A model generated the notes under the pieces. The model saw only the letters and a program-made list of their open reading frames with translations, searched no databases and was not told the DNA's origin. From positions 5,587-69,586 of the forward strand of contig CAYXBC010000024.1 of assembly GCA_964463255.1 (NCBI GenBank): a stretch of 64,000 bases of DNA, in the 5' to 3' direction. The DNA is from an uncultured Candidatus Peribacteria bacterium (GTDB taxonomy: Bacteria; Patescibacteriota; Gracilibacteria; Absconditabacterales; Absconditicoccaceae). Below, in pieces: positions 16,704-60,166 of the stretch. The stretch's first letter is position 1, and every line of letters starts with the position of its first letter. The translations under genes were made by a program, and so were the position numbers.

Positions 16704-16755
16704 ATCGGGCTGTATCAAAAAATAAATATGATTTTGAATATTCTTCTCTGTCTGA

Positions 16756-27985: not shown

Positions 27986-28280
27986 AGAGATGCTATATCA
28001 GGATAAACATATTCCGATGAAAGGGAAAAAATATACTTCCCTTGTTTAGTCTATTTGTCCTGTATTTCAACCAAAAAAAATATGTTACAGAAAGATACTG
28101 GAGAAAGAGAGAATACTGGATTCTGAAAGTCACAATAATTTCTTATGACAAAAAATGTTTGTGGCAAACAACAGACAATGTCATACTAGAGGATATAGTG
28201 TGCTGCTTAGATGAAATATCATTGTTTTTTTTATGTATATACATAGATAGTAGGAGAGCGTTTTTTATATCTTTTTTTTC

Positions 28281-36713: not shown

Positions 36714-36926
36714 GAAAGAAGAAATATCTTTCGGGAAAGATACATTCCCTTATTTTTTATAGAGCAAAAAAATGTAGCTAGAGAGAACAATACAAAATAT
36801 AAAAAAAAGAATAAATGTCAATTATATAAGAGAAGGAAACATTGCTAAACTTGACGAGAACCCTTTTCCGGTATATACTTGGAAGGATAGTATTCCATCG
36901 TCATTTTACTCCTTTCTGATATACAG

Positions 36927-39900: not shown

Positions 39901-42900
39901 ATTCCAATAATAATATCCTCAACAATATCCAGAGTTACAATAATGTATATGGAATAGAAGACGGATGAGACAATAATACCTATTATGGGACATTAAAGGT
40001 ATTTGGAAATGATGCTAATCTATATTGATGGTCTACGCTTATGACATGATCTGATTCAGAAGATTTCTCATGATGAATATTGGATACGGTATGAACCATA
40101 TCTTGTGATCGAATAACTAATCCTATGGACAGTAGTGAGGCATTTCTGGTAACCACTCCTGCTTGTGACAGTAGATGATATAATAATGGTTGGATACCAA
40201 CATACGATATAAAATATCTTTACGGAGCAAATATTCTCAGACAGACGAAAGCTGCACAGGATAGTGGAGAATGAACGCCTGTATATACTTGGTGAGGGAT
40301 ACCATATGTTCCGACAAAATATATAGCAGAAAGTAATCCACTTCTCAACGGATCGCTTCTCTTGGCATCAGGACAATCCTATGTGCTAGAAAATACTCTT
40401 CAGATTCATTTGACGACAGCAGAACCTTCCATATATGTACTCTCCGGTGATTTTGTATGATCGCCTGTTTCGGGCACCATACAAAGTGCAGCTAGGGCAA
40501 CCGTAAGCTTGACTGCATGATACGGTATCAAAAATATTTCCGTAAGCTATAGCACAGGAGAGAAACAAAGAATATTCACAAAAAAAATCTGATATATATC
40601 AAGTATGGATAACTATTGTGAGATGGTAAGTGATCTTCCTCGCGCCCAATGTGACGCACTCATCGATCTTTATATCAGTACGGATGGTGATCATTGGAAT
40701 TGGAGCAATAACCGGTTTGGGTCTGGTGATATAACTCCAGAAACCGTATGTGATAATCGGTATGGGGTAAGTTGTTATGATGATAATGGTTCTCTTTATG
40801 TCTCTTATCTTTCTTTATCTGAGAATAATCTCTCTGGGGCTTTGCCAGAAACGATAGGTAATCTTACTTGATTGGGAAATCTCTATCTGGATGGGAATCA
40901 TATTACGTCATTACCAGAATCCTTGGGTAATCTCACCTCATTAGGAGAACTCAATCTCTATAACAACGCATTAGTAGTATTACCAGAATCTTTCGGTAAT
41001 CTCACGTCATTGGCATATCTGTATCTCAATAGCAATGCATTAGCATCCTTACCGGAAAGCCTGACACAATTGAGTAATCTAAATTATATCAATATCAATA
41101 ATAATGCTATCTGTCCCTATGCATTGAGTGGCAATCTAAGGGATTTCTTGGATCAATATAATGAACAGGATAAGGGTGATTGGAGGAATGTCCAGGATAA
41201 AGGTGCCTGCGATAGTGATAATGATGGGGTTATGGATCCAGGAGACAACTGTCCTCTTGTAGCAAATACCGATCAAGCAGATCGGAATAAAATAGAATGA
41301 TGAGGAACGCCTGTTACCTTTACCAAGGCTAATTATGCAGATTGGACGCTTCCGGAAAATCAGGATTGCATCACATCAAATGTCTGTATCACCAGACAAG
41401 ATGATAGAGGTATTTTCAATGCAGTGTCAGAAGAATATTTTGATCGGGACAATAATAGCCCTAAGGATACACAGTGGGCAATGGGACAATGTAGTGATAT
41501 GGGGTCATTGAGTTTTGATAATTTGTTTGATTATGGATATTCTCCTTCCCATTTGATAGGTGATGCTCTGTGTCTGCATCTTATTTCAGAGGATAAATAT
41601 TACGATATCACTTTCAACAACCGGACCTCAGGTGAAGAAGAAGGTGGGTGAGGATTCTCGTATACAAGAACTGAATTTATAAACAACAAAGGTGATGTCT
41701 GTGATTGTAGTGATAATGCATGTTATGCAGGGAATACAGGAAATGATATCAGCGGAGCACCGGTATGTAAATTATGAGAAGACGCATGTTATCCCGATAC
41801 CGATGAAGATGGTGTACATGACAATAGAGATAACTGTATCTCTGTGCCGAATCCAGACCAAGCAGATACGGAAGTTTCTCAGATTTCATTCACCAAAGAA
41901 GATCGAGCTGACCCTACTGACCCAGCAAACCAAGATCATATCACGTCAAATGTCTGGCTTACGAGAGGAGATTATTATCCCTTATATAATATAAAGTATC
42001 AAAATTTCGGAGATGTCGAAGACAATAGCACAGCTCCTACCGATACAGAATGGGCATATGGTGAATGTGTTGATAAAGATAATCTTAATCGAGATTCTCG
42101 AGTATATTATATTTACTATAATTTAGGAAATCCTGTATGTCTCCATACACTTTCAGACAACAAATATATCGATATGGTATTTGATTCTCGGACAAGTGAT
42201 GATGGATGAGGATTCTCCTATACAAGAACAAAATATGGAGATGGAACAGGTGACGCTTGTCAAAATGTTTATCCTATAGTTACGCAAGGTCTTGGAGATC
42301 ATGAAGGAGTATTTACCATAGCATGATTATCAAGTGCTACGATAACATTCAATAAGCCTATTGCAAATATAGAGCATATAAAGCAGCTTATCGCTTCATG
42401 ATCAGATAGTGCTCCTACATTCAACTGGTCAGAAGGGGACTATATATTGACGATAAGCAATGAGACGGAAGAAGATATGAGATGGACGAGACCGATAGCA
42501 GGAAATCTTACTGATGCACAATGAAATACTTCATACAATCAAGTAGTGATCATGACGTCCGTAGAGACGGATAGTGAAGACCCTTTGGCTGGGTCCGGAA
42601 ATGCCTGTACTGTAGACAACACTTCTATCAGCATAGATATCCCATTACATACATCAGGGGCGAAAGTGAAGGTCGATTCATGTGATATTGAATACTCAGG
42701 AGATACCAAGATTATCACGATACCGGAAATAGATGTGACGGTGATGACAGATCTTTCTGATTCACCAGTGAGCGTACAGATACCTCAATTCACACGTATT
42801 ACCTCAGATCTTAATTTCGATTATAATATCTTCACACCGACCGTCAAAGAGAATTCTAGCGTCACAGCAGGTACAGACCAGACGGTACAATCCGTCATAG

Positions 42901-45900
42901 AACTTGGATATGCGTCATGAAGCCTCTTATTCGACCAATGAGTAAGGATACTCATTCCTGGGCAAGCAGGCAAAAAGGTAGGATATACACATGGAGGATC
43001 ACCGCTTACTGAGATTACCGCAATATGTGCTAGTGATAGCCAAACCATAGGTGATGATCTAGCTTCAAATAGTGATTGTAAAATAGATGTAGGAGCTGAC
43101 CTAGTCGTTTGGACAAAACATTTTACGACATTCGTTACCTATACCCAAAATGCTTGAGGAACCGGAGAACTCAATAGCGAGAATCTTGTGACTCAATATC
43201 TCTGTACAACCGATGCAACATGATGCGATCTTTCAAATATGGAGATAGCGACCATAGCACCAAATGCATTCATCAACCATACCATGCTGACGCGATTGAA
43301 TCTTAGCAACAATCAGATGAGCTGATTTCTTGCAAGTGCCACATTTGATGGTATACCCCAATTGCAATATCTCGATCTCAGCTACAATACTATCACCAGT
43401 GTGGATCTTTCCTGATTCGCTAATCTCACCCTGCTTAAGATAAACGATAATGCACTGACCTCATTGCCAGAAGGACTGACTGGACTCGCATCGTTATCGG
43501 ATGGGACATGACTTGATATCTCAAATAATTACATTAATTATACTCCATTTTCTCTTTCGACATTGTGATTTATCGATGCAAAGTCAGTGAATAGTGGATG
43601 GAGAAGTACCCAGATTTTCTGCGGAAATGGAGTGATTGAATGAAATGAAATATGTGATGATGGAATAGATAACGGAAACCAATCATACTGCAATCTTACC
43701 TGTACAGAGGTATTGCCTCCTGATGCAGACGGCGATGGCGTGCCGGATACTACGGACAATTGTCCTCATGTATCCAACGCTGATCAAACCGATACAGATA
43801 GCAACGGCATATGAGACGCCTGCCAACGCTCCGATCCGATAGCTCCTACAGCTACAGTAGAATATTCTATAGGATTACCAACCAATCAAGATGTGGTAGC
43901 TACGCTGACATGATGGAATGAAGCGATAACATGAGTGAATGCTTACCAGCATACCTTTACGGGAAATGGAGAATTCATATTCACCTTCACGAGTCTCTCT
44001 GGTCTCGATGGAAGTGTAATAGCCAGAGTAGGTTGGATCGATAAAGAGAGTCCAGTGATTACGATGATTGATAGCGGAACGCTTGAGATCGAGTGGGGAA
44101 GTGAATATACGGATGCTTGAGCGACTGCGTATGATAGTGTAGATGGAAACATCACCACTGGCATCATCACGAGCGGAACCGTAGATACGAATATACCAGG
44201 AAATTATATTGTAGAATATATGGTGACTGATAATGTAGGGAATGAGACATATACTATAAGGATAGTAAATGTAGTAGATACTACAGCGCCAGTAATTACC
44301 TTGAATGGCGGTACATGAATCGTGTATGTGGAATACAAAACTACTTATAGTGAATTATGAGCGAGCTGGAGAGATACACATGATGGAAGTGGAGTGGTGA
44401 TACAGATAAGCTGAACAGTGAATACGTGAGTACTCTGAACTTATACATTGCTATACAGCAAAGTAGATGCTGCAGGCAATGTAGCGACACCAGTGACAAG
44501 GACGGTGATGGTAAGAGATACTACGGCCCCAGTAATTACCTTGAATGGCGAACCAGGTCTGAATATCACACAAGGTACGACCTATACGGATGCTTGAGCG
44601 ACTGCACATGATAGTGTAGATGGAAATATCACCACTGGCATCATCACGAGCGGAGTAGTAGATACCAATAGAACATGAATATATATGATAATATATACCG
44701 TAAGAGATGCTGCAGGTAATCGAGCAACACCAATTACAAGATACATTACTGTCGTACAAAAGTGAGCGCCTACAGCAACGATAGTATATAGTAGTGAGAA
44801 TTTGACCAATCAAAACATAATCGCTACGGTGACATGATTTTCTGAAGCAGTGAGTGGTATGAATGCAGTGACCCACACCTTCACAGGAAACGGAACATTC
44901 ACCTTTACATTCAGCGACCTCTATGGAAATCCAGGAAGCATCATAGCGAATGTGACATGGATCGATAAGGTAAAACCTGTAGTGACACTAAATAATAGTG
45001 GAATGATATATATCGAATATGGAAACACTTATAGCGATGCAGGAGCGACAGCCAACGATAATATCGATGGGAATATCACCATCGGTATCATAACGAGTGG
45101 AACGGTAAACGCATGAGTACTATGAACCTATATGATTACCTATACCGTGAGCGATATTGCAGGAAATACCTGATCAGCTACGAGGACAGTGATGGTAAGA
45201 GATACTACGGCGCCAGTAATTACCTTGAATGGGGGCACATGAATCGTGTATGTGGAATATGGTAATGCTTATAGTGAATTATGAGCGAGCTGGACAGATC
45301 TTCGTGATGGAAGCGGAGTTGTGATGCAAATAAGTGGAATGGTAAATACATGAGTATTATGAACCTATACCATTACCTATACCGTGAGCGATATTGCAGG
45401 AAATACCTGATCAGCTACGAGGACGGTGATTGTAAGGGATACTACGGCACCAGTAATTACCTTGAATGGCGGCACATGAATCGTGTATGTCGAATACAAA
45501 ACTACTTATAGTGAATTATGAGCGAGCTGGAGAGATACACATGATGGAAGTGGAGTGGTGACACAGATAAGCTGAACAGTGAATACATGAACACTCTGAA
45601 CTTATACATTGCTATACAGCAAAGTAGATGCTGCAGGCAATGCAGCGACACCAACTACAAGGACGGTGATTGTAAGAGATACTACGGCGCCAGTAATCAC
45701 ACTTATCGGCAGCGGAACCATAAATATCGAATATGCTACAGTATATGGTGAATCCGGAGCCAGATGGTCAGATATTCATGATGGCTCATGATTCGTTGCC
45801 TCTATCAGCTGATACGTGGATACCTGAACGCCAGGAACATATACATTGCTATACAGCAAGACTGATACCTCTTGAAATACATGAACAGCAAGCAGAATAG

Positions 45901-47138
45901 TGAAGGTAGGTATGATTAGCGCCATATTGAGCGGAGAGAGAAATGCTACAGGATCTGCGATGTTCGACGGAGCGACGACCACCGGAGTGATATTGAGCTG
46001 AACAGGTAGTTTGACGCTTTCTAGCGAAGAGACAGGGAATAATACGCTCGAGATACCTTCGAATATAGGTGCTATCAATGCAAGCGGAGGTACATGGGAT
46101 GGAACAATTTCTGCACCAGAAAAAGATTTGAGCGGTGAGGCGACCCAAAGTGAATTATATTGATTTTTGCCTGTTTCTACCAACAATACGACATATCAGC
46201 ATGAAATCATAACTACTGTAAAAGTGGGATCAAATGTCGAGCTACGACCAACAACCGGATACTTCACAGTCACTATCTATGTCGTAGGATATAATGGGCA
46301 GACTATCAAAGTCTTTAGATCAGAAGACGGTGATACTCGGACCAAAAATTCACCCGATGAAACATGTTATGTCACAGGCAATATCTGTAGCTTTAGGACC
46401 GATCACTTGAGTTTCTTTGCTCCAGCAAAAGTAGTCGCAAGCCAAGTAGTAACAACTCCTAGCGTATGATGATGAGGCTGATGAACGACCCTCATAAAAG
46501 ATATGTGTCCAGGACAAAGGGATTGTTCAGATAGTTATTATGATAAGCTTTGCGGTGTATGTCCAGCATCAGCGACAGGTCATGCAGCAGCGAGTACGAA
46601 AGTACCAGCGAGCATAGTGAATTCTCCCTATTCTTCACAGTCTAATGAGGCATATCTCCGGGCATACAGCTACGATATCACAACCATGCCTACCATCCAG
46701 AATGCGAATATAGATGGCAATCTCATGAGAAGGGATATGGCAAAGATGATAACCAACTTTGCAACGCAAGTCATGGGAATGAAAATCACGGCTCAGAGTT
46801 GATTGAACTGCAAATTCTCCGATATAGCATCCCTCGGAAAACAGACCCAATATTATATTCTTTATGCATGCAGATTGTGACTGATGTGATATGAGAATGA
46901 TGGTGTGACGGTACAGAAAAACTTTGATCCTAATAAAGAAGTCGATAGGAGACAATTCGGAACAATCCTTTCCAGAGTTATCCGATGAACGAAATACAAT
47001 GGATGAATCCCATATTATATGAACCATTTAGCCGCATTGAAGAGGAATGCAATCATGACCAAGATATCTACGCCGACGATGAAAGAGATAAGAGGGTTTG
47101 TGATGCTGATGATGAAGAGAGCGTTCGAGATGAAATAG
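36927..47138 (+). CDS. giant multidomain cell-surface protein (3403 aa): LRR blocks, TSP3 calcium-binding repeats, parallel beta-helix repeats, Ig-like repeats, SLH-like anchor
   Basis: Thirteen ORF-track pieces are all in frame 0. I traced most long gaps codon by codon (37791-38334, 38802-40605, 42918-43935, 44118-44460, 45789-46167, 46800-47138) and read the remaining gaps, including 45117-45608, by translation; I found only TGA. N-terminal TM leader. Repeated DADGDGVPDxxDNCPxxxNxDQ. NN(T/A)IxNxQxYNN beta-helix repeats across 39.4-40.0 kb. DTTAPVITLNG Ig-like repeats across 43.8-45.9 kb. TAG at 47136. Confidence 0.8.
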
Positions 47139-47193
47139 GCATATGCTGCCCAATACCTATCCATAAAAATTTTTACTCTTGTCTGATATACAG

Positions 47194-47997
47194 ATGAAAT
47201 TCCATGACCGTACCGGTTCCCACCTCAAGAGCAGAGTATTCTGACCTTTTACTTTCATTAAGATGCTATTAGTGTTTGCAGGATTTTTGGGGATTATCAC
47301 CCAAGCTAGGTATATTTATGCCGCATCTACACAAAATATATGAAGTAGTTGAGGAACAACCATAAAACAAGATATCTGTGCAGTGAGGGACTGTAGTAGT
47401 AAGTACTACGATGATGTCTGTGGAATCTGCCCTAAGACCACACAGGGCACTGTGGGAATAACGGGAACTAGTGTACCAACAACAGGATCGATAGTAGGAT
47501 CGACGTACTCTCAGGAACTCAATAGTGCCTACCTCTATGCATACAGCGTAGGAATCACCAGTATGCCAACTATCCAAAAAGCCAACCTTGATGGTAAATT
47601 ATTAAGATCTCATATGGCCAAGATGATGGTGGAATATGCAATGAATGTCTTGGAAAAGAAAGCTGATACCAAAGCAGTATGTACCTATACGGATATCGCT
47701 GATCAAAGTGAGGAAATGCAGACATATATGAAGCTTGCATGTGCATATGGTCTCATGGGTATACATACCAACAACAAATTCAATCCAACCAGTGAAGTAA
47801 CGAGAGCAGAATTTGCTACGGTCTTATCAAGATTATTATATGGTGCCAGATATGATGCCACAGCAGGAGCAAATTATTATGAAAATCATCTTGCAGCATT
47901 AAAAACAAAGAAGATAATCACCAACACCACTCCCACTCTCAAAGAATTAAGAGCTAATGTAATGCTGATGCTTTGGAGAGCTACGACCAGAAAATAG
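47194..47997 (+). CDS. small paralog made of the same N-terminal leader plus a Cys-rich linker plus the SLH-like anchor module (267 aa)
   Basis: MKFHDRTGSHLK..MLLVFAGFLGII matches the giant protein leader. The C-terminus FNPTSEVTRAEFATVLSRLLYG...LMLWR matches the anchors at 12.3 kb and 47.0 kb. TAG at 47995. Confidence 0.75.
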
Positions 47998-48006
47998 TAG
48001 AAGTAT

Positions 48007-48036
48007 AAAAACTCTGCATAACTGCAGGGTTTTTTA
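48007..48036 (+). terminator. rho-independent terminator
   Basis: aaaactctgca-taac-tgcagggtttttt directly after the stop at 47997. Confidence 0.6.
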
Positions 48037-48049
48037 GTGCCATGTTATT

Positions 48050-48098
48050 CTGGTAGGGTGGCCCCGGAGATGCACCGGGGAACCACTGAGTAAAGAAA
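48050..48098 (-). other. tRNA 3'-half-like remnant (putative att junction)
   Basis: The minus strand reads ctttactCAGTGGTtCCCCGGtgcatctCCGGGGCCACCCTAcca. tRNA-Lys reads cttttaagcCAGTGGTcCAGGGttcgatcCCCTGCCACCCTA. The acceptor strand and variable-loop region are identical, and the T-stem differs but still base-pairs. No 5' half is present. Confidence 0.5.
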
Positions 48099-48356
48099 AA
48101 AATAACCAATCTCTTGATTATTTTTCTATATTTCAACATTTCAATGTTATTCTGGTAGACTGACAGGTCATTGAATCTAATTTCTATACGTCTATCTTTA
48201 CTCAATATAAACAGTTCATCCTAAAAAACAAGGACGTTATAAAAGCCATATATGCGTATATGGACTTTTTCCATAAATGAAGGTTAGCCGAGCTTTCGTC
48301 AGTGGAGTTAGTGAAAGTTGGGGATTACAATCTATAAATAAGGAACAAACCGTTCA

Positions 48357-48482
48357 CTAATCTAATTCAACCTCTAACAATAACTGAATGAGATTATAGA
48401 GAGATTCACCAAAACCTTTAGCACTCAATACTTCACGCAAAGATTGTTTCGTTTCAAATCTTTGTAAAATCAGTTTATCCAT
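48357..48482 (-). CDS. hypothetical 41-aa protein divergent from rep
   Basis: ATG 48482, TAG 48357-48359. It is short and has no motif. Confidence 0.25.
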   Translation of the reverse strand: MDKLILQRFETKQSLREVLSAKGFGESLYNLIQLLLEVELD

Positions 48483-48506
48483 TTTATTTTATTACCATAT
48501 AAAACA

Positions 48507-49427
48507 ATGACTATATCACAAGACATCATCCAAAGGACTATTGATAAGATGATAAGAAGCCAAGAGAAAAAGAAAGAGATTACTGGTTATTTAGAAGCTA
48601 ATAAGCCACATTTATTATGATCTATCCGAAAGAAGGGAAGGATAAAAGACTGTTGTAATGTCTTAATCTTCCGTGATTATCTCAATGGAGAAAAGAAGCT
48701 CTATAAAACCAACTTCTGTAAATACGATAAGTTCTGCCTAGCCTGTGCTACTAGGAGATCAATAAAGATGATCCAAAAATTTGAAGCCTGAATTGTTCAA
48801 TATGGATTGGATACGAAAAACTGGTATCATATATCATTGACGGTTAAGCACAATAATCGTCAGTCTTTAGGATTTCTTATGGATAAACTATGGAAGGCAA
48901 AAGAGAAACTAGCCCAAAGGTTTAGAAACTCCAAAAGAGATAATCATAAAGCAAAGAGTTTTATGCACAATTTTGACGGGATAGTTAGTTCTGTAGAGGT
49001 AACCTATAGTCAAAAAAGCGGGCGACATCCACATATCCATATGCTTGTTTGTACTGATAAAGAAATACCAATAGAATGGTCTAAGAAACTAACAGCACAT
49101 TCAAATAGAGAGCTTCAAAAAGAATGGTATCAGATTACGGGGGATAGTTATTCCGTAGGTATAAGAAAGGTAGCGGTTAATAAAGACAATTATAGCCGTA
49201 AAGGTATAGGGGAGGTATTCAAATATGCAGTTAAATTTTCAAAATTGGATATACCTCAACTGTCGGAAGTGATAGAAATTCAGCAAATCAAAAGATATCG
49301 TTTCTTTGCTACCTATGGTATCTTTAGAGGTTGGAAGATAGAAAAACCCAATATCATAGATAATGATAGGTTCGTAGAAAGATCTTTTGAATATCACAAT
49401 GATGAATTTGAAGAAAAAGACATATAA
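48507..49427 (+). CDS. rolling-circle replication initiator (HUH endonuclease, Rep_1/pC194-pUB110-like)
   Basis: Motif 1 HISLTVKHN, motif 2 HPHIHMLV, motif 3 EVFKYAVKFSK. Two in-frame TGAs join ATG 48507 to ORF 48807..49427. Confidence 0.8.
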
Positions 49428-49562
49428 GTTGATATATTAGATAATTAGACAAAAGATTCGTGATTTTAACTATCAAATACAACAGGTACAAAATTTGCAA
49501 AAATTTCGATTCTGAATATAATTACTAGAGAGTAAAAACTCTTTAATTTTTGAAACACAGGT

Positions 49563-50357
49563 ATGAAAAAAAAGGTTACATCAATTCACGACTTTCTAGA
49601 GCAAGCCAAGGATATGACACCCACCCAGGCGGGAAAAGAATTTTATTGATTGACGGAAAAAGAAATTAATGAAATCCTATCAAAAAAAACCGAAGTTTCA
49701 AAGACAGAAATAGAAACCACAAAATCCACAGAAGAAGAATCGAATGAAATAATGTCTTCTAAACTTCCTTCAGCAGTAAGTAAGCAGGGGAAGGATGCAG
49801 TTGAATATTTTTTTAAGAATAAAGAAGTAAGTCATTCGAATGTTATCGTTGAGGTCCAGAAACTAGGGAAGAAATGACTGATCCAATATAAGGATACAGG
49901 AAACGGAACTTACGAAGTCCATTTTAATCTCCCATGATGTAAACTGAAACGATATATGCCCCCAGATACTAGCATAGCGGATAGTAGTTACATATACGAT
50001 CTTTGGGACGACACCAAGATAACACAGATAACACAACAGGAAACAACAAGAAAGAGACTACGAAGTGATGAATGAAAGAAATATTTGACCGACAAAGAGA
50101 AGAATGAAAAAAAATCACTTATCAGTAAGGAAAACTTCCTAAAGCTGTGAAAGGCATTGTATCCTAATGGAACCGAGGAAGAACAGATATTAGCAATAAT
50201 GATAGCGACATGATTTTATGGATATATGTGGTTATCAGATAAAACATCAGAATATCAGCTTGCTGTCAATTGTTATCTTCATTCAGATGACCGTTCATTC
50301 TTCAAGCTGAGTTTTGATCTCAGCTCATGCAGTATCATTTACACAAGCACTTTATAG
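49563..50357 (+). CDS. DGR target protein 1 (264 aa) with C-terminal variable region
   Basis: ATG 49563 with six in-frame TGAs. Paralogous to 53293..54087 and to the C-terminal third of 50432..53218. It ends ...CSIIYTSTL-TAG at 50355. Confidence 0.8.
50256..50350 (+). repeat. DGR variable repeat VR1
   Basis: Aligns to the reverse complement of 55785-55884. By hand alignment, 17 of 18 substitutions fall at TR adenines. Confidence 0.85.
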
Positions 50358-50431
50358 AGATAGACCCCGCAGAGCGGGGTAAACTCTTTGACTCTTTGTC
50401 CCTTTGACTCTTTAATTATTACACTATACCA

Positions 50432-53218
50432 ATGGAAAACCAATTGAACACATCATCTCCATCAGTAGATAACAAACAAGAAAAAGCTATCCAGCTTACA
50501 AGTTTGATAGGAGATTTTCTGATTGATCCCTTGCATGCAGATATATATACCAAACTCAAAGCAAAATGATCCAAGGAAGATGTCCAGTTTCTCAAACAGC
50601 TTAGAAAATGAAAGGAAGGTATCAACTCTCGTACATCCCAAAAACTCTGAGAGACTTTGAGTAATCCTTCTCCAATAATAACCCCAGACAGTCTAGAGTT
50701 ATTGATCAGTCAGGATATTTCGGATACAGAGATAGATGCTATTAGGAAGTTATATGCTGATCCTGAAGTCAGGGAGATTTATTTTGATGAATATGAATCC
50801 AGAAAAGATGATTTGGATCTACTGAGAAGATGATATAAACAACTAGGTAAAGTCCAGAAAATAGATGATATTATCTCCAAAGCAAAAGATAAAATACTGG
50901 GAATAAGGATAGCGGCGTTTGCTGCGAACAGACAATTATCTCCAAACGAAATAATCCATATCACCAAACTCCATGAAGCAATATCACAACAAGAATCTGA
51001 AAAGAAAAACATGCTGAAAATCAGAGAGATTGCTACAGCATACAGACATCAGCAACTCAAAACATATAAACATCAGATGGATACAGAATGATTTGTCATC
51101 ACTCCATCTAGAGTTAAAATTATTGATGAAATCATAGAAAAGATATTACTTGGTCAAAATGTGTTGCTTACTGGACCGACAGGTACAGGTAAAACAGTAT
51201 TGGCAATCCAGGCAGTCAAAACCATAGCAGCCAGACTACATATCTGACTGGAAGCAGTACAGGGTAAAGCATTAGCTCATGAGCTACAAAACAACCCTGA
51301 TGCTGAAAAACTTTTGGATGAATTTGTAGTAGTGCTTTCGGGTCATGCAGGTATTACTCCTTCGGAATTTATCGCCAAGATGTGACTGAAATGAGATGAC
51401 AAATGAGGTACACAAACATACACTCAGCTAGGTAAGGTACTTAAAGCATTTGTGGATGGAAACATTCCTATTATTGATGAAATAGATTTGATACCAAATG
51501 ATGTACTCATGAGGATCAAACATCTGTTTACGTTGAAATCAGGCAAGACGTATTCACCACAAGAAGACGGCAACCAAAAACATAAGCTATTGACCACTAC
51601 GGTCATAGCTACAGCCAATATCAAATCAGCCAAACATCCAGATAGACAGGAGATAGATCCTGCTATAGTCAGACTTTTGCCTGGTGTTGAAGTAAAATAT
51701 CTGCCTAGTGAAGAAACGTATGATTTGGGATTGATCAATATCATGGAACCTAAATGATTTGTATATTGAGTAGGAGTAGAGAGCTTATCACATACTGATG
51801 GTATATTATATCATCTTATCGAAGCACTCAAACAGATAGAAGATAATTATCTTGGTAAATGAACATGACTTACAATATCCAATAAGTCCAATATGTTTCT
51901 GCAAAAAGCGGTATTGGAACTATGAAGTTTTGTAGCGTTATTCAAATGATTCAAAGAATCAGGACAAGATTTTGCTGAATTTATTAAAGCCAAAATAATA
52001 AAATTTGTGAGCAATGGTGCGTATCCCAAAAATGACAGAATGCTGCTTATCAATATTTTTTCTGGCAAAGGTTTGGTTACACAAAATGATGTAGATTCAT
52101 TATTGGAAAGGATGTCTGATATTTCAAAAGAAGAACTTGAACAAAATATACTATGAGGAACTAGTTTCACATTTCCGCAGGACACTATACGTTTTGTTGA
52201 CCCTTATCAGCTTGCAAATTTTGATCCTTACAAAAAAAGAAATCTAGAAACTTTGGAATTGGAAGATAAAAATATGAAGATAAAATCAACATTGAAACAA
52301 ATAAGTGCACATCTACTTACATTGCCAAACGAGGATACAGAAGATTTGCAGGAAAATTTGGATAATATATTGGATGAATATGTTAAGAACCCCGATTATG
52401 AAATAAACCATGAAACAATAGACCAGATATTTGGCTGATTGTATGAATTATGATTAGTGACCCAATTATTGGAATGTAGTCGTTTGGGAGACTATTGGTC
52501 ATCTAGGATAGAAATGATAAAACTTTTTGACAGTAAAGATAAAAATGGTAAGGGTCTATTTGAAAATACTGAGATTCCATCAAAGGAATCTATTTCGCTT
52601 GCAAAGGAAGTAAAAGAAAATATTTCTTCATCTCTACCATCAATGGTAGCTAAACAAGAAAAGGATGCAACCAAATATTTTACTGACAATAGCGAAACAA
52701 ATCATTTAGAAATTATCACGGGAATACAAAAATTAAGGGATAAAAAAATGATCACCTACAAGGATACAGGAAACGGAACCTACGAAGTCCATTTTAATCT
52801 CCCATGAAGCAAACTAAAACGATATATGCCCTCAGATACAAGCATAGCCGATAGCTCCTCTAAGTATACACTTTGGGATGATACTGAACTAAAACCCCAA
52901 GAAACAACAAGAAACAAGCTTCGAAGTGATGAATGAAAAAAATATCTGAAAGATAAAGAACAGAAAGAGAATAAGAATTTATTAAACAAAAGCGATTTCC
53001 TAAAGCTATGAAAGGCTCTTTATCCTAATGGAACCGAAGAAGAACAGATATTAGCAATAATGATAGCGACAGGCTTTTATGGATGGATGTGGTTATCAGA
53101 TAAAGACTCAGATTATCAGCTTGCTGTCTTCTGTTCTCGTAAATCATTTAACCGTTTATTCCTCAAGGTGAATGATGATCTCAACCATTGCAGTATCATT
53201 TACACAAGCACTTTATAG
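50432..53218 (+). CDS. DGR target protein 2: AAA+ ATPase (MoxR/AAA_5-like) fused to the variable C-terminal module (928 aa)
   Basis: ATG 50432. A single frame was traced through TGAs to TAG 53216. Walker A LLTGPTGTGKT, Walker B IPIIDEIDL. The C-terminal 260 aa are colinear with targets 1 and 3. Confidence 0.75.
53117..53211 (+). repeat. DGR variable repeat VR2
   Basis: 15 of 16 substitutions relative to the TR fall at TR adenines. Confidence 0.85.
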
Positions 53219-53292
53219 AGATAGACCCCGCGTAGCGGGGTAAACTCTTTGATACTTTGTCACTTTGACTCTTTAATTCTTGGAATATATAT

Positions 53293-54087
53293 ATGACAAA
53301 AAAGATTACATCAATTCATGACTTTCTAGAGCAAACCAAGGATATGACACCTGCACAGGCGGGAAAAGAATTTTATTGATTGACGGAGAAAGAGATAAAA
53401 GAGATTCTATCACAGAAGACCGAGAAGAAAAATGAAGATGCCAATCCCAAAGACCTTGGTCCTGTAAAGGGAAAGGAATCAAATGAGAAAATAACATCAG
53501 TGCTCCCATGAGCAGTAAAAAAACAGGAAAAAGACGCTACTGATTATTTTACCAAAAGTAATGAAACTAATCATCTGCAAGTTATCTCAGAAGTACAGAA
53601 ATTAAGGGATAAGAAAATGATCACCTATAAGGATACAGGGAATGGAACCTATGAAGTACATTTCAATCTTCCATGAAGCAAAATGAAACGATATATGCCA
53701 CCTGACACGAGTATAGCAGATAGTAGCTATAAATACGATTTTTGGGATGATACAAAAATAACTAATCAGGAAACGAAAAAAAGTAAACTCCGAAGTGATG
53801 AATGAAAAAAACATCTAGAAGAAAAAGAGAAAAAAGAACATAAAAAGTTACTAACCAAAGAAGAAATACTAATATTATGAAAAGAATTATGCCCGACAGG
53901 AACTGAAGAGGAACAGATATTAGCAATAATGATAGCAACAGGCTTTTATGGATATATGTGGTTATCGGATAAGATATCAGAATATCAGCTTGCTGTCATT
54001 TGTTATCGTGAGTCAGATGACCGTTCATTCTTCAAGATGACTATTGATGACTCCCATTGCAGTATCATTTACACAAGCACTTTATAG
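53293..54087 (+). CDS. DGR target protein 3 (264 aa)
   Basis: ATG 53293, TAG 54085. The N-terminus MTKKITSIHDFLEQTKDMTPAQAGKEFY-G-LTEKEI is nearly identical to target 1. Confidence 0.8.
53986..54080 (+). repeat. DGR variable repeat VR3
   Basis: 16 of 16 substitutions relative to the TR fall at TR adenines. Confidence 0.85.
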
Positions 54088-54156
54088 AGATAGACCCCGC
54101 GTAGCGGGGTAAACTCTTTGATACTTTGACCCTTTGTCTCTTTGCCTCTTTTATAT

Positions 54157-54498
54157 CTACGATACCTTATTCCATCCAGCAAGCTGTTTGGATATTTCTT
54201 CAATCAATGGTTGTAAATCTACATAGTCTAAATAAGCAAATCCTCATAAATCTTTGCAGAGTCTGACCAAGAGTCTGATCAGTTCAATCTGTTCTCTCGC
54301 ATTATTGAGATATTCTTTTCTTTGTTCACGAAAACTATTTGCCTTAAAAATTGTTATTACAAGTTCTACTAGACTCGTATGTAAGTGTTGACCTACATTG
54401 TATCTATAACTTTGCGGAAGTTTCTTACATAGACGGGTTGTAGTAACCAGGAGTGTATAACATGATTTGTAGATAGGTAGTTCATTATAGATTACCAT
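54157..54498 (-). CDS. avd: Avd-like accessory variability determinant (four-helix-bundle / 23S rRNA IVS protein family, 113 aa)
   Basis: MVIYNELPIYKSCYTLLVTTTRLCKKLPQSYRYNVGQHL... It extends through TGA 54244 to TAG 54157-54159. The ATG overlaps the RT stop as ATGGTAA. Confidence 0.7.
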
Positions 54499-55721
54499 CA
54501 GAGTAGTTTGTAAAAAATATAAAGTGATTGTTTGTATTTCTTTTTGACTTTTCTTAATTTGATACTAATCTTGTCCCAAGGAGATTTAGCTTTGAAATAA
54601 TTTCATCGTTTGACTGGCATTCACGATACCATACCTTGCCTCAGGCGGTAAGTAGACCAGTGTTTCATCATACCCAGATAACTATTACAGGTACTGCGAA
54701 ATTTCTCCCATTGTGTATAAGAGTTTGGTGGATGTGATTTCCGTTCATTCATTTTTTTCTTCCAACGTCAGATAGTTCTGGTACGTGGTAGTATATGATA
54801 TGGTTTGATTCTCACTCAGCAGAAAGTAACTCCATGTCTGATTGGCTGAAAATATCTTTTGTTCGGATGTAACTTCAATTGCAATCTTTCATCTAGAAAT
54901 CTTTCTATCTGTTTGATACAGTTTTGGAGATAAGATTTATCAGTATGCATCAGCACAAAATCGTCCATATATCTTCCATAGTATTTGATACCTAGATGAT
55001 GTACTATAAATTTATCCAGCTCGTACATATAGATATTTGCAAAAATCTGACTGGTAAGATTTCATAATGGCAATCCTGTCCCAATCTTGCTTGCAAATAA
55101 TGATTTATGTTTAGGAAAGCTATCCCGTTGCCTGATGTTACCTATGCGATGATAATGCATGGTAGGCTCATCCATAATTATCGTAGAAATAATTTTCCAA
55201 AATCGTTGGATAGAATATGGTAAATGTGATTTATTAGTCTCTAGGATATTTCTGACGAGACCAGATAAAATGGTTTTGTTTATAGACATAAAATAACTGG
55301 AAATATCATATTTAGCCACCCATGCTTCATTAGTGTAATTATCGCTCACGGACCTCAACATTCTCTTAACTTGCTGTATGGCATGATGAGTTCATTTGCC
55401 TGGTCTGCATGCATAACTATTATCCAAAAAAATATGTTCAAGGATTGGATTAAGATGTCTATACATTAGATGATGTACGATACGATCACGGATATGAGGA
55501 GCAAAAATTTCTCTAGGCACAGGATCGAATATTAGGAAACAAGTATATTCTGATGTCTGATACTTGCCAGAGATAAGTTCATCATATAATTTAAGTATTT
55601 CTACTTCCTTGTTGATATCAAAAGCGATCAAGGTATGCTTATTTGATTTTCACTTTTTCATTGTCTCATAGGCTTGGAATATATCATGAAGTAATTTCTG
55701 CTTCTCATCTCAGTTTAGCAT
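54492..55721 (-). CDS. DGR reverse transcriptase (409 aa)
   Basis: Three ORF pieces plus tails are in one frame across TGA. Contains RPGK-G-THHA, the DGR-type motif LPL-G-NLTSQIFANIYM ([LIV]GxxxSQ) and the catalytic YMDD. TAA at 54492. Confidence 0.9.
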
Positions 55722-55784
55722 AATTTATTTTTATACAAAATAAAAAAGTATATCCCATGATGTAGAATATACTTTAGTAGTCTA

Positions 55785-55884
55785 TGCAAAGTGTTGTGTA
55801 AATGATACTGCATTTGTTGTTATCATTATTCATCTTGTTGAATTTACGGTTATCTGATTTACGATAACATTTGACAGCAAGCTG
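55785..55884 (-). repeat. DGR template repeat (TR)
   Basis: The minus strand reads cagcttgctgtc AAA tgt tat cgt AAA tca gat AAC cgt AAA ttc AAC aag atg AAT AAT gat AAC AAC AAA tgc agt atc att tac aca... It is non-coding, lies just 5' of the RT gene, and is adenine-rich exactly where the VRs vary. Confidence 0.85.
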
Positions 55885-56254
55885 CAGCACAATTGTCACT
55901 ACTTTATTTGCCAGTTGCCTGATACTTTATGCCATTGATTCATATCAATGGGAGTGACTGCACTTTATAGGATAGACATATTGATTTTGCATACTTTGGC
56001 AGTGTCCAATTGACTACAGCCAAATTCCAGCCTAGACATACTAATCTTCTGGGTGTTATTTACAAACAAAAAATTTGTTTATAAATTTGTCTCAAAATTT
56101 GCTCTTCCTGCGAGATGAATCCGTTTCAGGATGAATCAGGCAAGGACGGGTAAATTTTGTCCAACAAAATTTGTTTATAAATTTAGTTCAAAATTTGCTA
56201 AAATAAGTGTTTTGCTTATAATTGTAGAGCAACATTATTACATAATTTCATCAC

Positions 56255-58390
56255 ATGAAAAACACACCTCAATCAAATTATGAATCATTTGATATAACCA
56301 AGTACACTCCTTGGATAAATTTGCTGTCCAAAAACAATAATATCCAGATAAATATAGATAACTCATTTTCCCATACTGCCGCTATCAATCTACAAGATTT
56401 ATCTAAACCACAGATTATTCTCAATCTTAGACTTATGAAAGAAAAATATAATTATTCTGATGATGAGATAATGTTTGATATAGGTCATGAGCTTGGTCAT
56501 TTGGATGAAGAAACGCAATTGCAAAGTACTCAAACATGAAAAGATATTGCCCAACAAAGAGTCCAGAGACTTGAAGAAAAATGAAATCTAGCAGAATCTT
56601 ATCATATCTTGGAAAATGTCCTAAGAGACGTTTGGGACAATAATGACCTTATCAGTCCTAGAAAATTACCCGTTCTCAAAAATACCTGTTATACCAATTA
56701 TAGGGATAAAATGTTCAAAGAGACAGACTATTGTCAGCTACCAAAACATATGCAGTTTAATAATACTATCATCAGAGAAGCCATGGTTCCTGATCAGCAA
56801 TGTACTATCGATCCTAATATTAGAAAGATTATTTCAAGATTAAAAAGAAGTGATGTTTTATCGAAAACTACTGTATGAACACTACAATCCAGACTTCAAA
56901 ATATACGGCAGTATGTAGAACCTGTTTATCAAAAACTTTTGCAGGATGACATAAAAAAGCAGGAGGATGAAAACAAGAATCAGGAGAAAGAAAAGAAGGA
57001 TAAAAAAGGTAATCAGAATAAATGAAAAGGGAATCCATCACAAAACAATAATCAAAGCGGTTGAAATCAAAATAATCCTGGTCAGAAATCTTGAGAGAGT
57101 CCAAATTCTCAAATAGCTCAAACTCCTAAATGAAAAAATAATAAATGAGCAATCAAACAACTTATGCAAATACTTTGATGAGAAAAAAATAAATGATGAG
57201 ATTCACAGCCACCTAAAAACAATCAAATCAATCCATCGGATGCTATTTCTAATGAAGGCAAAAATCCTTTTGATGGTCTCTATCAGAATATGCCCAAGAT
57301 ACCTCATCTCCTGGAACAGGAACTTTCGGATGAAGATAAGCAAAAACTTAGACAAGTTTTACAGGATATTTATGATGAAAAAAATAGAGAAAAGACCCGT
57401 GAAGAATTAGAATTGGAAAAGAGAGCAAAGAATATGTGAATCAATCCTAGCGACAAAGATGCATTTCAAGAGACAGTCCGTAAGCTAAAGGACTATGATA
57501 AATTCCTTGCTCAGTTGGAACAGATTATAGACAAACATACTGGTAACGCGGTTATGCAAGAGATAGAAAACATATTTCAGCAAATCAGGTCGCATAGAAC
57601 TAAACCACGCTACAAAGCCAAAGGACCAGTAGATATAGACCATGGCTATAGGTTACATCCTGGAGCTATCGCCTGAGGTATCGCAGAAGTGAAGTGAGGT
57701 AATTTCAATCCAGAGATGTTTGAAATGGATATTAAACATGAAAAGCCCGAACAATTGACAGGCAGGTTTGAATTAACACTTATAGCAGATGGAAGCTGAT
57801 CTATGACACAAAACGATAAAAATAGACAACAAAAGATAGCTGTACTGCTTATCTTAGAATCTCTCAAACGTTTGCATGATAAGCTATCGGAAGAAAAATA
57901 TAACCTCACAGAAGGAGTAGAGTTTACAACTCAGGCTATTATGTTCCTGGAGAAACTAAAATGAGTTTTGGATTGTAAAGATTTGTGACCAGATTTTTCT
58001 GATCAAGAAAGGTTGTATACCTATAGTTCTCTTGATCATGCTAACTGATGAACAAACGACTATGATGGTCTCCAAAAAGTAATTGATCATATGAAGTGAT
58101 ATTCTCATGAACATCTACAGGAAATACAATCATGAAAAGTAAAAAAAATTATTATAGTCATGTCAGACTGATGATCAGATGATGAGACAAAAATGAAAGA
58201 AAAAATCAAAACATTAAGAGATATGTGAGTGTTGGTATATGGAGTAGGTATCACTTCTTCTGGAAGTCCTATGGTAGACCTTTTTCAGTCTACAAATCAA
58301 TCTTTAGGATATGGGCAGGTATGTACACAAGTACAGGATTTAGCTCAGACACTCAAAGATATCCTTTGGATGCATTTGGAAAAATTATAG
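56255..58390 (+). CDS. HExxH zinc-metalloprotease-like N-terminus plus a Q/N/K-rich linker plus a C-terminal von Willebrand factor A domain (711 aa)
   Basis: HELGH at about 56500. MIDAS-like LIADGS-G-SM and VMSD-GG-SDD. The whole frame 56540-58388 was traced (TGA only). TAG at 58388. Confidence 0.75.
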
Positions 58391-58422
58391 AATATATATT
58401 CCTAATATAGTTCTTTTATCCT

Positions 58423-59733
58423 ATGAAAATGAGGCAAATAACTGCTTTATTTTTTCGCTGTTTTGGATATATTGTGAATGGTTTATTTTTATATTGGCAT
58501 ACAATGTGAATGAAATATCAAACCTATTATCCTTATCCATTACACGAACACTTTCAAAGTCCATTTTGGGATTTTTTTGAAGATAAAAAAAACATTAAAA
58601 CTATTGAGGAAATTACAGATTCACGAATAAAACCAAACCACCGTATATACTCTGAGAACCCAAAGACAATGTATATGGAAACAATCACTCAATCAAAAAT
58701 ATGACTTTGAACTTCTATAAAAGATGATTGAATATATGTAAGTCCTCTTTTTCTTATTTTAAGAAAAATATGAGACCTTTTCATATCAAGACTACCAAAT
58801 AATACTTTTAATTTTGATGATTATAGTGTGATTATATGACTTTTGAAATGAGGAATGATACACGAATACCATACTATAGGGAAAGAAGGGGAAGATTTAA
58901 TGGATATACTAGACAAAGAGGCTGAAGCCAAATATTGAAAAGTTTTAGAGGCACGAAATAAATTAGTTCCATTTTATACAGAAGAAATAGAACCAAGAGG
59001 AGAAAATTTAGAACTAATGAATCTACAAGCCAAGGCTTTTGAAGAAGTTAGAAAATACGTTTATCTAACAGACAAAAAATTAACTAAAAAAACGATTGAA
59101 GATATTGATAAATTATGTATACAACCAAATAATTTTTATAAGTTTTCTAAAGAGTGAATAGATTTTATTAAAGAATTTGATTTTGATGAAAATATCATAA
59201 AAGGATTTAGACAAATTCGTATAAAAAGACACTTCAAATTTAATATTGGTTTGTTGATTGCAGTCATTACTGCGGTTTATTTTGATATTGAACTCTTTTT
59301 GTATTATAACCCATACCTATATGAAATGTGAATTTGTGATAAAGACAATCTAAAATTTGAATATGACAATACTTATATAGTTATGAATTTTAACAATATT
59401 ATTAAAAGCGTGTTTTGTGAACATTGTTTGGAAAAGATGGTAGGAGAAACAAGAAAGAAGTTAAAAAACGGAAAGAATATAGAAAACAATCAAGAAATTA
59501 TAAAGAATATGTTTGATGGTGTTCTAAACCAACTTTCTAGTATTTGTCCCGATGATGTTTCATTGGTCATTGAGGGGAAAGTAAATGATACAAATAGAAT
59601 GCACGAAATAAACGAAAAGCTACCAAATGCTGATGTTGTTGGATATACAAGACATAGTGGGAACAATAAGAAAGTAAAATTTGTCATAAAAGATGATTTG
59701 AAAAACTGTAAGAAAAGAATAGAAAGAAAATAA
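58423..59733 (+). CDS. hypothetical protein (436 aa), one central TM
   Basis: Pieces 58510..58704 and 59383..59733 are in one frame, with the gap traced. The start could be 58423 or 58510. Confidence 0.55.
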
Positions 59734-59734
59734 G

Positions 59735-59756
59735 CTCTTCTTGGCGAAGAGATTTT
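59735..59756 (+). terminator. possible terminator hairpin
   Basis: ctcttc-ttggc-gaagag followed by atttt. Confidence 0.4.
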
Positions 59757-59817
59757 AATGGGTGTTTTTCACAAAGTCCTTTTATAGAAAAAGGAAGAGA
59801 AACGAACCCAAAAGCCA

Positions 59818-59985
59818 ATGAAAATTGAAGAACTAAGAAAAGTTCTAGGCTCAAAATATGATGCTTTGCCAGATTCAACTCTGCAAGGTATCATAGACCT
59901 CTTCAGAATGTATGCGAAACTTGCAATAAGTAAGCATATAGCTGAAAAGAAAAAAGCCAGAGCTGACAAAATCCGCAACAAATAG
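59818..59985 (+). CDS. hypothetical 55-aa basic protein upstream of the recombinase (candidate directionality factor or regulator)
   Basis: ATG 59818, TAG 59983, followed by a strong hairpin. Confidence 0.45.
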   Translation: MKIEELRKVLGSKYDALPDSTLQGIIDLFRMYAKLAISKHIAEKKKARADKIRNK

Positions 59986-59993
59986 CGGTAGAG

Positions 59994-60020
59994 CCGTAGC
60001 CCACAAAGCTACGGTTTTCT
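59994..60020 (+). terminator. rho-independent terminator
   Basis: ccgtagc-ccacaaa-gctacgg followed by tttt. Confidence 0.6.
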
Positions 60021-60166
60021 TGTTGTGAAAAAATCTCTTGCTTTTGTGAACTGTTTATTTATTATATATACCGAACCAGTAAGAAAACATATAAAAAGTA
60101 GTTATAATAAGTAATATAAACGCTATAATATAAGTTCGGTATAAATAACATTTTATTTACTAATAA

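Follow-up and report, generated by a model that had tools for sequence, protein, structure and literature searches.

In this study, we describe a diversity-generating retroelement (DGR) in a 64,000-nucleotide stretch of DNA (hereafter, the window) from contig CAYXBC010000024.1 of an uncultured Candidatus Peribacteria bacterium. The second of its three target genes (target 2; 50432-53218, + strand) encodes a 928-aa protein in which an AAA+ ATPase carries, at its C-terminus, the same variable module that is found in the two short targets. We are nearly certain that target 2 is a genuine fusion and an active DGR target, and the locus can be described as an ATPase-fused target caught diversifying, with a predicted MoxR-class core and a conserved partner gene encoding a VWA-domain protein. 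As the overall reading, to which we give a probability of roughly 0.6, we propose a cytoplasmic MoxR-VWA machine with a recognition head diversified by the retroelement. This reading takes an 'unknown intracellular target' to a concrete biochemical hypothesis, in which a MoxR-VWA machine for remodelling bears a programmable head.

The window contains the complete set of DGR parts. The template repeat (TR; 55781-55884, - strand, 104 nt) lies upstream of the reverse transcriptase (RT) gene on the minus strand. The RT (54492-55721, - strand) is a 409-aa protein matching RVT_1 at 4.6e-19, and its LGNLTSQ sequence fits [ILV]GxxxSQ, the motif of DGR RTs. The accessory protein bAvd (54157-54498, - strand) has 113 aa and matches PF22296 at 2.5e-12. 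On the plus strand, target 2 stands between target 1 (49563-50357), consisting of a leader and the variable module, and target 3 (53293-54087). Three DGR targets had been proposed in the first-pass annotation, with 264 aa for targets 1 and 3, and this was borne out by the TR, the RT, bAvd and three variable repeats (VRs), all on the plus strand: VR1 (50256-50352), VR2 (53117-53213), which ends 3 nt ahead of the stop codon of target 2, and VR3 (53986-54082), at the 3' end of target 3. Compared with the TR, each VR has 15-17 mismatches at TR adenines (17 in VR1) and just 1-2 at non-adenine positions. Directly behind every VR stands a 7-bp GC hairpin on the plus strand, identical in all three cases, at 50364-50380 after VR1 (GACCCCGC-AGA-GCGGGGT; -8.3 kcal/mol, z = -5.0), 53225-53241 after VR2 (-8.3 kcal/mol, z = -4.1) and 54094-54110 after VR3. 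The locus therefore has what defines DGR targets, namely adenine-site TR/VR mismatches, a DGR-type RT with Avd, and a 3'-terminal VR with a hairpin in the initiation of mutagenic homing region.

The activity of this DGR could be localized to the fused copy by comparison with an independent assembly. When the ENA locus (L009) was aligned with the window base for base over 14,892 bp, 19 positions differed; all of them fall at 53141-53188, within VR2, and 18 of the 19 are at TR adenines, while VR1 and VR3 are unchanged. Since the differences are concentrated at TR adenines of VR2, the fused target 2 is undergoing adenine-specific mutagenesis by the DGR, and it is the most recently turned-over copy among the three targets. 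Apart from the VR, the same fusion protein is encoded in three assemblies (NCBI, 74.6 kb; ENA, 74.1 kb; JGI, 11.3 kb), among which there are two VR2 protein variants. About 15 codons, within the C-terminal ~25 residues of target 2, are rewritten by the DGR, and the theoretical repertoire calculated from the TR reaches up to ~4.5e15 amino-acid combinations across 15 variable codons. At one non-adenine position (53147), VR2 of the window has changed from the TR by G -> T (GAT -> TTT), and L009 retains G.

The reading frame of target 2 depends on the genetic code of the host. Under code 25, the frame runs through 928 sense codons from ATG 50432 to TAG 53216-53218, and it had been traced before as a frame broken by TGA alone; our count of 21 in-frame TGA and 0 TAA/TAG agrees with this, and TAA and TAG are missing from this frame throughout 50243-53215. 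The recoding is window-wide, since ORFs bounded by TAA/TAG extend up to 3416 codons and the longest one holds 105 TGA. From the alignments, we read TGA as Gly (code 25, as in SR1/Gracilibacteria) and not as Trp, because W appears in place of the invariant glycines of Walker A in homologues whose translation used code 4 (LLTWPTGTGKT, AWPTWTGKT). In the alignment of 42 relatives, the columns of target-2 TGA codons are mixtures of W and G, those of its GGN codons hold 29% G and 28% W, and G is never found in those of its TGG codons. The query of the protein-representative search was the database copy of target 2 (P0035), in which TGA is read as W. The closest genome matches are Candidatus Absconditabacterales MAGs (metagenome-assembled genomes). 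Besides AAY, the TR (at 55788-55884) has four AAA codons and one AAG codon, which can mutate to TAA or TAG stops, and the reading of a TGA outcome as Gly under code 25 takes away one of the three stop risks in VR mutagenesis.

We then consider whether the ATPase and the variable module are one polypeptide or two. The homology of the ATPase family spans ~aa 18 to ~aa 704 of target 2, and the VR-bearing module (52556-53215, + strand; aa 709-928) corresponds by homology to residues 39-264 of the two short targets. The two parts thus directly abut, and target 2 does not have the 38-aa leader of targets 1 and 3. The shared module and the upstream ATPase part of the first-pass annotation are thus both real, and only their sizes need correction, from 260 aa to ~220 aa for the module and from ~660 aa to ~700 aa for the ATPase part. 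The sequence between genes ahead of target 2 repeats that ahead of target 3, which indicates that the start of the ATPase occupies the position of a target start. A single ORF of 928 aa had also been claimed, and the same architecture is present in two related contigs. In one Absconditabacterales MAG (L010), the 928-aa orthologue shows 68% identity and 0 TAA/TAG, with a short target ahead of the gene, and in another contig (P0002/L011) the same fusion shows 64% identity.

A reading as two genes, in which an independent ATPase is followed by a variable module translated from GTG 52457 (aa 676), ATG 52514 (aa 695) or ATG 52643, and the fusion is an artefact of taking TGA as sense, is very unlikely to be right. 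These in-frame starts do exist, and a short isoform from an internal start may be made in addition to the full-length protein. However, GTG 52457 and ATG 52514 fall in the GGLYELGL/IEMIKLFD region, which is kept in ATPase-family members with very different C-termini, and a separate start near 52457 is not supported because that GTG lies inside the ATPase-family homology. With TGA demonstrably Gly on the alignments above, no stop occurs in 50243-53215, and a ribosome on the ATPase cannot terminate ahead of the VR. Neither a spacer nor the leader with which the short targets begin is found at the junction, and no strong promoter-like site was found in 52300-52520. In L010, moreover, the junction (aa 660-712) has no gaps, 68% identity, and 15 synonymous and 17 non-synonymous codon changes, which points to coding constraint across it. 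A non-functional product of recombination among the target copies, either an assembly chimera or a decaying pseudogene, is barely conceivable. Three copies that are 70-86% similar, all inside 4.5 kb, invite mis-assembly or recombination, and a related strain (L021) has no RT, TR or fusion at this position. Against this stand the agreement of the three assembly sources on the fusion and the identity of the ENA DNA outside VR2, in which there is no TAA/TAG or frameshift at 52250-52460, together with the conservation of the 928-aa architecture in the orthologues of two other MAGs. For a pseudogene, the invariance of the catalytic residues would also be hard to understand, as would the fact that VR2 is the sole VR changed between assemblies, at TR adenines.

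As for the ATPase itself, an N-terminal helical region (50432-51121, + strand; aa 1-230), in which AxELASLxG is conserved in the family, precedes the AAA+ core (51122-51751, +; aa 231-440), and the lid and helical scaffold (51752-52531, +; aa 441-700), with the conserved GGLYELGL and IEMIKLFD, follow it. Neither the helical arm of ~230 aa before the core nor the scaffold of ~260 aa after it has a family assignment. The core contains, all on the plus strand, Walker A (LLTGPTGTGKT, 51164-51196; aa 245-255), Walker B (IPIIDEIDL, 51464-51490; aa 345-353), sensor-1 (ATAN, 51602-51628) and an Arg motif (DPAIVRL, 51656-51679), and K254, T255, D349, E350, N396, R405 and R414 are invariant across 20 homologues. 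The Walker motifs and an AAA_5/MoxR-like core had already been recognized, and code-25 translation followed by profile search agreed with this assignment, AAA_5 matching target 2 at 36.1 bits (cut-off 22). An AlphaFold2 model built from 42 sequences has a mean pLDDT of 73, with ~90 across the core, and when this predicted model was compared with the PDB by Foldseek, the best matches were NorQ, NorQ-NorD(VWA) complexes and CbbQ (E 2e-8 to 1e-7, target TM 0.70-0.76), with McrB (E ~2e-6, TM 0.43-0.62) and dynein modules lower. On the basis of the model, the target 2 ATPase is therefore assigned to the MoxR class, NorQ/CbbQ type. A sequence-only PDB search of the core gave weak matches to midasin, ABC and ClpX P-loops only, the NCBIfam search gave nothing meaningful, and tblastn of the ATPase against phage and plasmid collections gave no match. 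An assignment as a STAND/NLR-like NTPase was rejected, since the NTPase is AAA_5 and target 2 has no NACHT, NB-ARC or nSTAND match; nSTAND3 was weakly matched by 3 of 50 ATPase relatives.

The relatives of the ATPase suggest that its C-terminal head is exchangeable. The exhaustive search gave 412 cluster representatives at E <= 1e-3 and 208 at E <= 1e-10, and close relatives end in WD40 or WG repeats. For example, a 1.49-Mb Patescibacteria chromosome (L004, 1-13198) has four tandem ATPase-family paralogues, each ended by WG repeats, with no DGR nearby. In three other loci (L001, L005 and L012), the ATPase is joined to an unrelated VR module of the RG...GFR type, with its own TR and an RT 28-30% identical to that of the window, and each of these loci also carries a short free-standing target. 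The short targets share the N-terminal leader MTPxExxxxIYG even though their VR modules are of two unrelated types, and the ATPase fusions have no such leader. The leader is DMTPTQAGKEFYGL in the window (49563-49690, 53293-53420), GMTPKEIVEKIYGI in L012 (8207-8300), NMTPAEVAEQIYGI in L005 (6247-6340) and GMSLEQIAQDIYHT in L001 (8806-8900). It could be a docking peptide.

The second conserved element is the neighbouring gene at 56255-58390 (+ strand). In its 711-aa product, a linker of low complexity connects an N-terminal HExxH region (HELGH) to a VWA domain at the C-terminus, whose MIDAS sequence is DGSGS. Orthologues of 40-57% identity, with HExxH and MIDAS kept, adjoin the ATPase gene in the window/L009, L001/L002, L005, L006, L012 and L015, and in L019, a Levyibacteriota contig, a distant orthologue stands beside the ATPase gene. 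In L006 and L015, the pair occurs with no DGR, and for this reason the ATPase-VWA pair appears, as judged from gene content, to be the older unit, to which the DGR was added later. The PDB profile search of the partner gave integrin-type VWA matches and a non-significant proabylysin match, and Pfam gave EAD8, EAD1 and DED matches, sub-threshold only. The maximal 19-residue Kyte-Doolittle mean is 0.97-1.24 for the fused target 2, for target 1 and for the VWA protein, and no transmembrane-like hydrophobic segment was found in these three proteins, on which no signal-peptide predictor was run. An intracellular or machine-coupled function had been suggested earlier, and with no hydrophobic segments and a VWA partner gene as a conserved neighbour, this is still the best reading.

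Based on these results, we propose the following mechanism. In the single polypeptide of target 2, a MoxR-class ATPase with a long helical N-terminus carries the hypervariable module of ~220 aa at its C-terminus; the fusion would be cytoplasmic and assembled as a hexameric ring like other MoxR ATPases, in which case each ring would bear six identical variable heads. MoxR ATPases typically work with VWA partners, and in NorQD the VWA domain inserts a finger into the pore of the ring, the partner being remodelled as ATP is hydrolysed (PMC13036017). In the same way as NorD with NorQ or CbbO with CbbQ, the HExxH-VWA protein may engage the ring, with the VWA domain docking and ATP hydrolysis remodelling a bound partner. 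The variable head would then select the ligand, and the ATPase-VWA pair would transduce the signal, remodel the ligand or possibly cleave it via the HExxH region; alternatively, ligand binding by the head may activate the VWA partner. From homology and gene context, we consider it somewhat more probable than the contrary that target 2 acts as such a MoxR-VWA machine. Its most likely role is to recognize foreign or host molecules that change, be it in conflict and defence or in the interaction of an episymbiont with its host. A recognition role is suggested because sensors are swapped, paralogues form arrays, a DGR is coupled to the ATPase, and the neighbourhood is low in GC with Rep_1 and a serine recombinase at tRNA-Lys. 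This conflict or sensor role is the least certain step, and we put it forward tentatively, at somewhat less than even odds.

Other functions can be imagined for the same set of genes. The protein might be a MoxR-VWA chaperone with a housekeeping task, such as inserting metal or maturing a complex, comparable to NorQD, CbbQO or RavA-ViaA, with a client-binding domain that is variable by chance, and its closest structures, NorQ and CbbQ, are indeed maturation or remodelling chaperones with VWA partners (PMC13036017, PMC9976466). However, a hypermutated client site makes little sense for a dedicated chaperone, WD40 or WG repeats take the place of the head in relatives, which also occur as tandem arrays of paralogues, a nearby client operon (nor, cbb, cox) was not seen, and the setting is low in GC, with genes for Rep_1 and a serine recombinase beside tRNA-Lys, all of which make this function unlikely. 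We regard as similarly improbable a role at the surface, in which the modules are exported to bind host cells and the ATPase-VWA pair serves export or assembly, e.g. of a pilus- or adhesin-like structure. Absconditabacteria/Gracilibacteria are episymbionts or predators needing host attachment, genes of giant LRR/beta-helix/Ig surface proteins and of an SLH protein lie just upstream, and VWA domains occur in adhesins, where they are common as tips. Nevertheless, the variable module shares one polypeptide with a soluble AAA+ ATPase, which requires cytoplasmic ATP, no transmembrane-like segment was found in targets 1 and 2 or in the VWA protein (no signal-peptide predictor having been run), and no genes of a secretion system were seen in the operon. 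A further candidate, highly improbable on the present data, is an McrB-like GTPase belonging to a restriction system, in which the specificity domain would be variable. AAA_5 covers McrB, and McrB structures are in the Foldseek list at E ~2e-6, but they rank lower, with TM values of 0.43-0.62 compared with 0.70-0.76 for NorQ/CbbQ. The sensor region of target 2 reads ATANIKS and not NTAD, the McrB signature, and the scanned neighbour proteins have no Pfam match suggesting an McrC-like or other nuclease, the conserved partner being the VWA protein.

Several observations weigh against the proposed MoxR-VWA machine with a diversified recognition head. That the ATPase forms a hexamer, hydrolyses ATP and contacts the VWA protein is taken from homology and gene order, and the label of a ligand-binding head for the VR module is given by analogy with other DGR targets; the predicted model of this module gave no significant match, to a C-type lectin (CLec) or to any other structure, in the PDB and BFVD. 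In L004/L013 and L007/L008/L014, the VWA gene does not adjoin the ATPase, and no family was significantly matched by the HExxH region (proabylysin, E = 0.35). PADLOC gave no defence-family match, and no recognizable effector domain was found. In addition, a short target and the VWA gene are retained in the close relative L021, where neither an RT nor an ATPase fusion lies in the 10 kb covered on one side.

This related strain offers a view of how the locus can change. L021 8372-10001 has 77-92% nucleotide identity to the window at 27991, 49301-50416, 54157-54247 and 55929-56961, and its order is topA, a single short target, the hairpin, a 3' avd remnant, and then a jump to just upstream of the VWA gene, so that the RT, the TR and the greater part of avd are deleted. 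L021 also does not have the ~21 kb of giant surface-protein genes that lie between topA and the DGR in the window.

The fold of the variable module was examined separately. The VR module family of the window is a small set of short proteins of ~250-320 aa. Pfam found no relevant family, including CLec, in 23 VR-module homologues even at E <= 5, and it recognized no C-terminal lectin-type domain in 50 ATPase-family members. The predicted model of the 264-aa target has a pLDDT of ~90 in the VR module, and Foldseek of this model gave nothing significant against the PDB and BFVD, although the use of the whole protein as query may have lowered the sensitivity. The best match of the 264-aa model had E = 3.5 in the PDB, where the sole lectin-fold match was EBV gp42 (E = 6.5), and E = 0.67 in BFVD. 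In the model, the last 75 residues of the VR module show a helix-helix-four-strand order, which is compatible with a minimal CLec but is not proof of one. With no profile match and no significant structural match, the VR module was not assigned as a C-type lectin. Many ATPase relatives have tails that resemble CLec (GFRPSV, GVRVGVR, RVVLLER), as a reading of patterns only.

Compared with known systems, the headline architecture, an ATPase-fused DGR target in candidate phyla radiation (CPR) bacteria, is already in the literature. In the passage of Doré et al. 2024 (PMC10907252) that cites Paul 2017, ATPase-fused targets are the commonest DGR target type in CPR bacteria, and the ATPase is suggested to be a signal transducer; CPR targets also include a Midasin/P-loop NTPase category (g1, UVR4; Wu et al. 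2018, PMC5758913). A diversified tip on an ATPase, described as unusual in the first-pass annotation, is therefore unusual with respect to phage- or Bordetella-type DGRs, but not in CPR bacteria (Doré 2024; Wu 2018). Our locus resembles these targets in its CPR-type host, several targets per DGR, an N-terminal AAA/P-loop ATPase, the VR at the extreme C-terminus, the lack of a transmembrane segment and the weak midasin sequence match. Judging from the citing paper, the ATPase family is probably the same as that of the Paul 2017 targets. As possible differences, our ATPase is placed by structure in MoxR NorQ/CbbQ, it has a documented and conserved HExxH-VWA partner, the VR module has no C-type-lectin match and the host is a code-25 bacterium. 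The VWA coupling and the unclassified VR fold may be new details. We believe that this locus is useful in several respects: activity is localized to the fused copy, the fold predicted for the core is of the NorQ/CbbQ class, the HExxH-VWA partner is conserved, the heads are exchangeable and the VR scaffold is unclassified. The DGR targets of CPR bacteria have been described as opaque in function, and their genuine non-membrane nature is still to be established according to Roux 2021 (PMC8144416).

Among other systems, the MoxR-vWA ternary (VMAP) conflict systems carry a DGR-diversified FGS domain on the vWA component (Kaur et al. 2020, PMC7159879). These systems (Kaur 2020; DGR 4/5/7/8 of Doré 2024) share with our locus a MoxR-type ATPase, a vWA protein and a DGR, a cytoplasmic nature (probable in our case) and swappable C-terminal domains, and clade 5A of Doré 2024 likewise has a short and a long target at one locus. 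However, FGS/CLec in VMAP systems is on the vWA or an unannotated protein and MoxR is small and separate, whereas here the VR is on the MoxR-like ATPase and the vWA protein has the order HExxH-linker-VWA and no VR. Their hosts are multicellular cyanobacteria and proteobacteria, and here the host is a CPR bacterium. Pfam, with no VMAP profile used, found no VMAP, peptidase, cyclase, TIR or EAD component in the neighbours, apart from sub-threshold EAD8/EAD1 in the VWA protein. The NorQ-NorD and CbbQ-CbbO pairs provide the best structural match of the ATPase core, and the adjacent VWA gene with an intact MIDAS is a further likeness, but NorQ and CbbQ have ~260 aa with no N-terminal helical arm or C-terminal binding domain, and they have fixed clients (NOR, Rubisco) and no retroelement. 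STAND/NLR-like DGR targets, described as 'putative antigen sensors' (Doré et al. 2024, PMC10907252), are similar in having a central NTPase, a diversified C-terminal sensor and relatives with WD40-type repeats instead; the NTPase here is AAA_5/MoxR and not NACHT/nSTAND, and an annotated N-terminal effector is absent. A bolder possibility, which we consider doubtful, is that code-25 and other CPR bacteria have a distinct two-gene 'programmable MoxR' machine with ring-borne diversified heads, in which the HExxH-VWA partner is maybe a latent metallopeptidase, the short targets dock through the MTPxExxxxIYG leader, and the ~220-aa module is a third DGR scaffold, neither CLec nor Ig.

In the second type of DGR described above, an Avd-like helical bundle forms the C-terminal half of a 204-282-aa protein whose N-terminal domain is unassigned (L001 13098-13946, L005 3499-4326, L012 6131-6745; 61% identity between L001 and L005). 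The label Avd-like is provisional, as it comes from reading the sequences and not from a profile.

Upstream of target 1, a promoter-like 38-nt motif (49486-49523, + strand; TTGCAA-N16-TATAAT) was found by consensus match only, the total of promoter-like sites in the window being no higher than in shuffles. A copy with 74% identity lies upstream of the VWA gene (56186-56223; TTGCAA/TTGCTA-N16-TATAAT across the pair), and the shared motif is a hint that the VWA partner and the target operon are co-regulated.

The DGR and the VWA gene lie in a low-GC stretch (48000-62000), in which GC is 0.30-0.36 compared with ~0.40 elsewhere. This stretch includes a gene for rolling-circle replication (Rep_1, 48468-49427) and one for a large serine recombinase (60167-61927), whose ORF runs antisense through tRNA-Lys (61831-61906), and it may be an integrated element. 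An att repeat of tRNA-Lys was sought at its left edge, where just a 9-10-nt similarity near 48055 was seen, which is unconvincing. Ahead of this stretch, the giant ORF at 36891-47138 (+ strand; 3416 aa, 105 TGA) has LRR, beta-helix, TSP_3 and bacterial Ig-like matches in the database gene table, and its product is probably a surface protein; an SLH-domain protein (47167-47997) comes after it. Another giant ORF, on the minus strand (12291-16865), has 1525 aa and 72 TGA.

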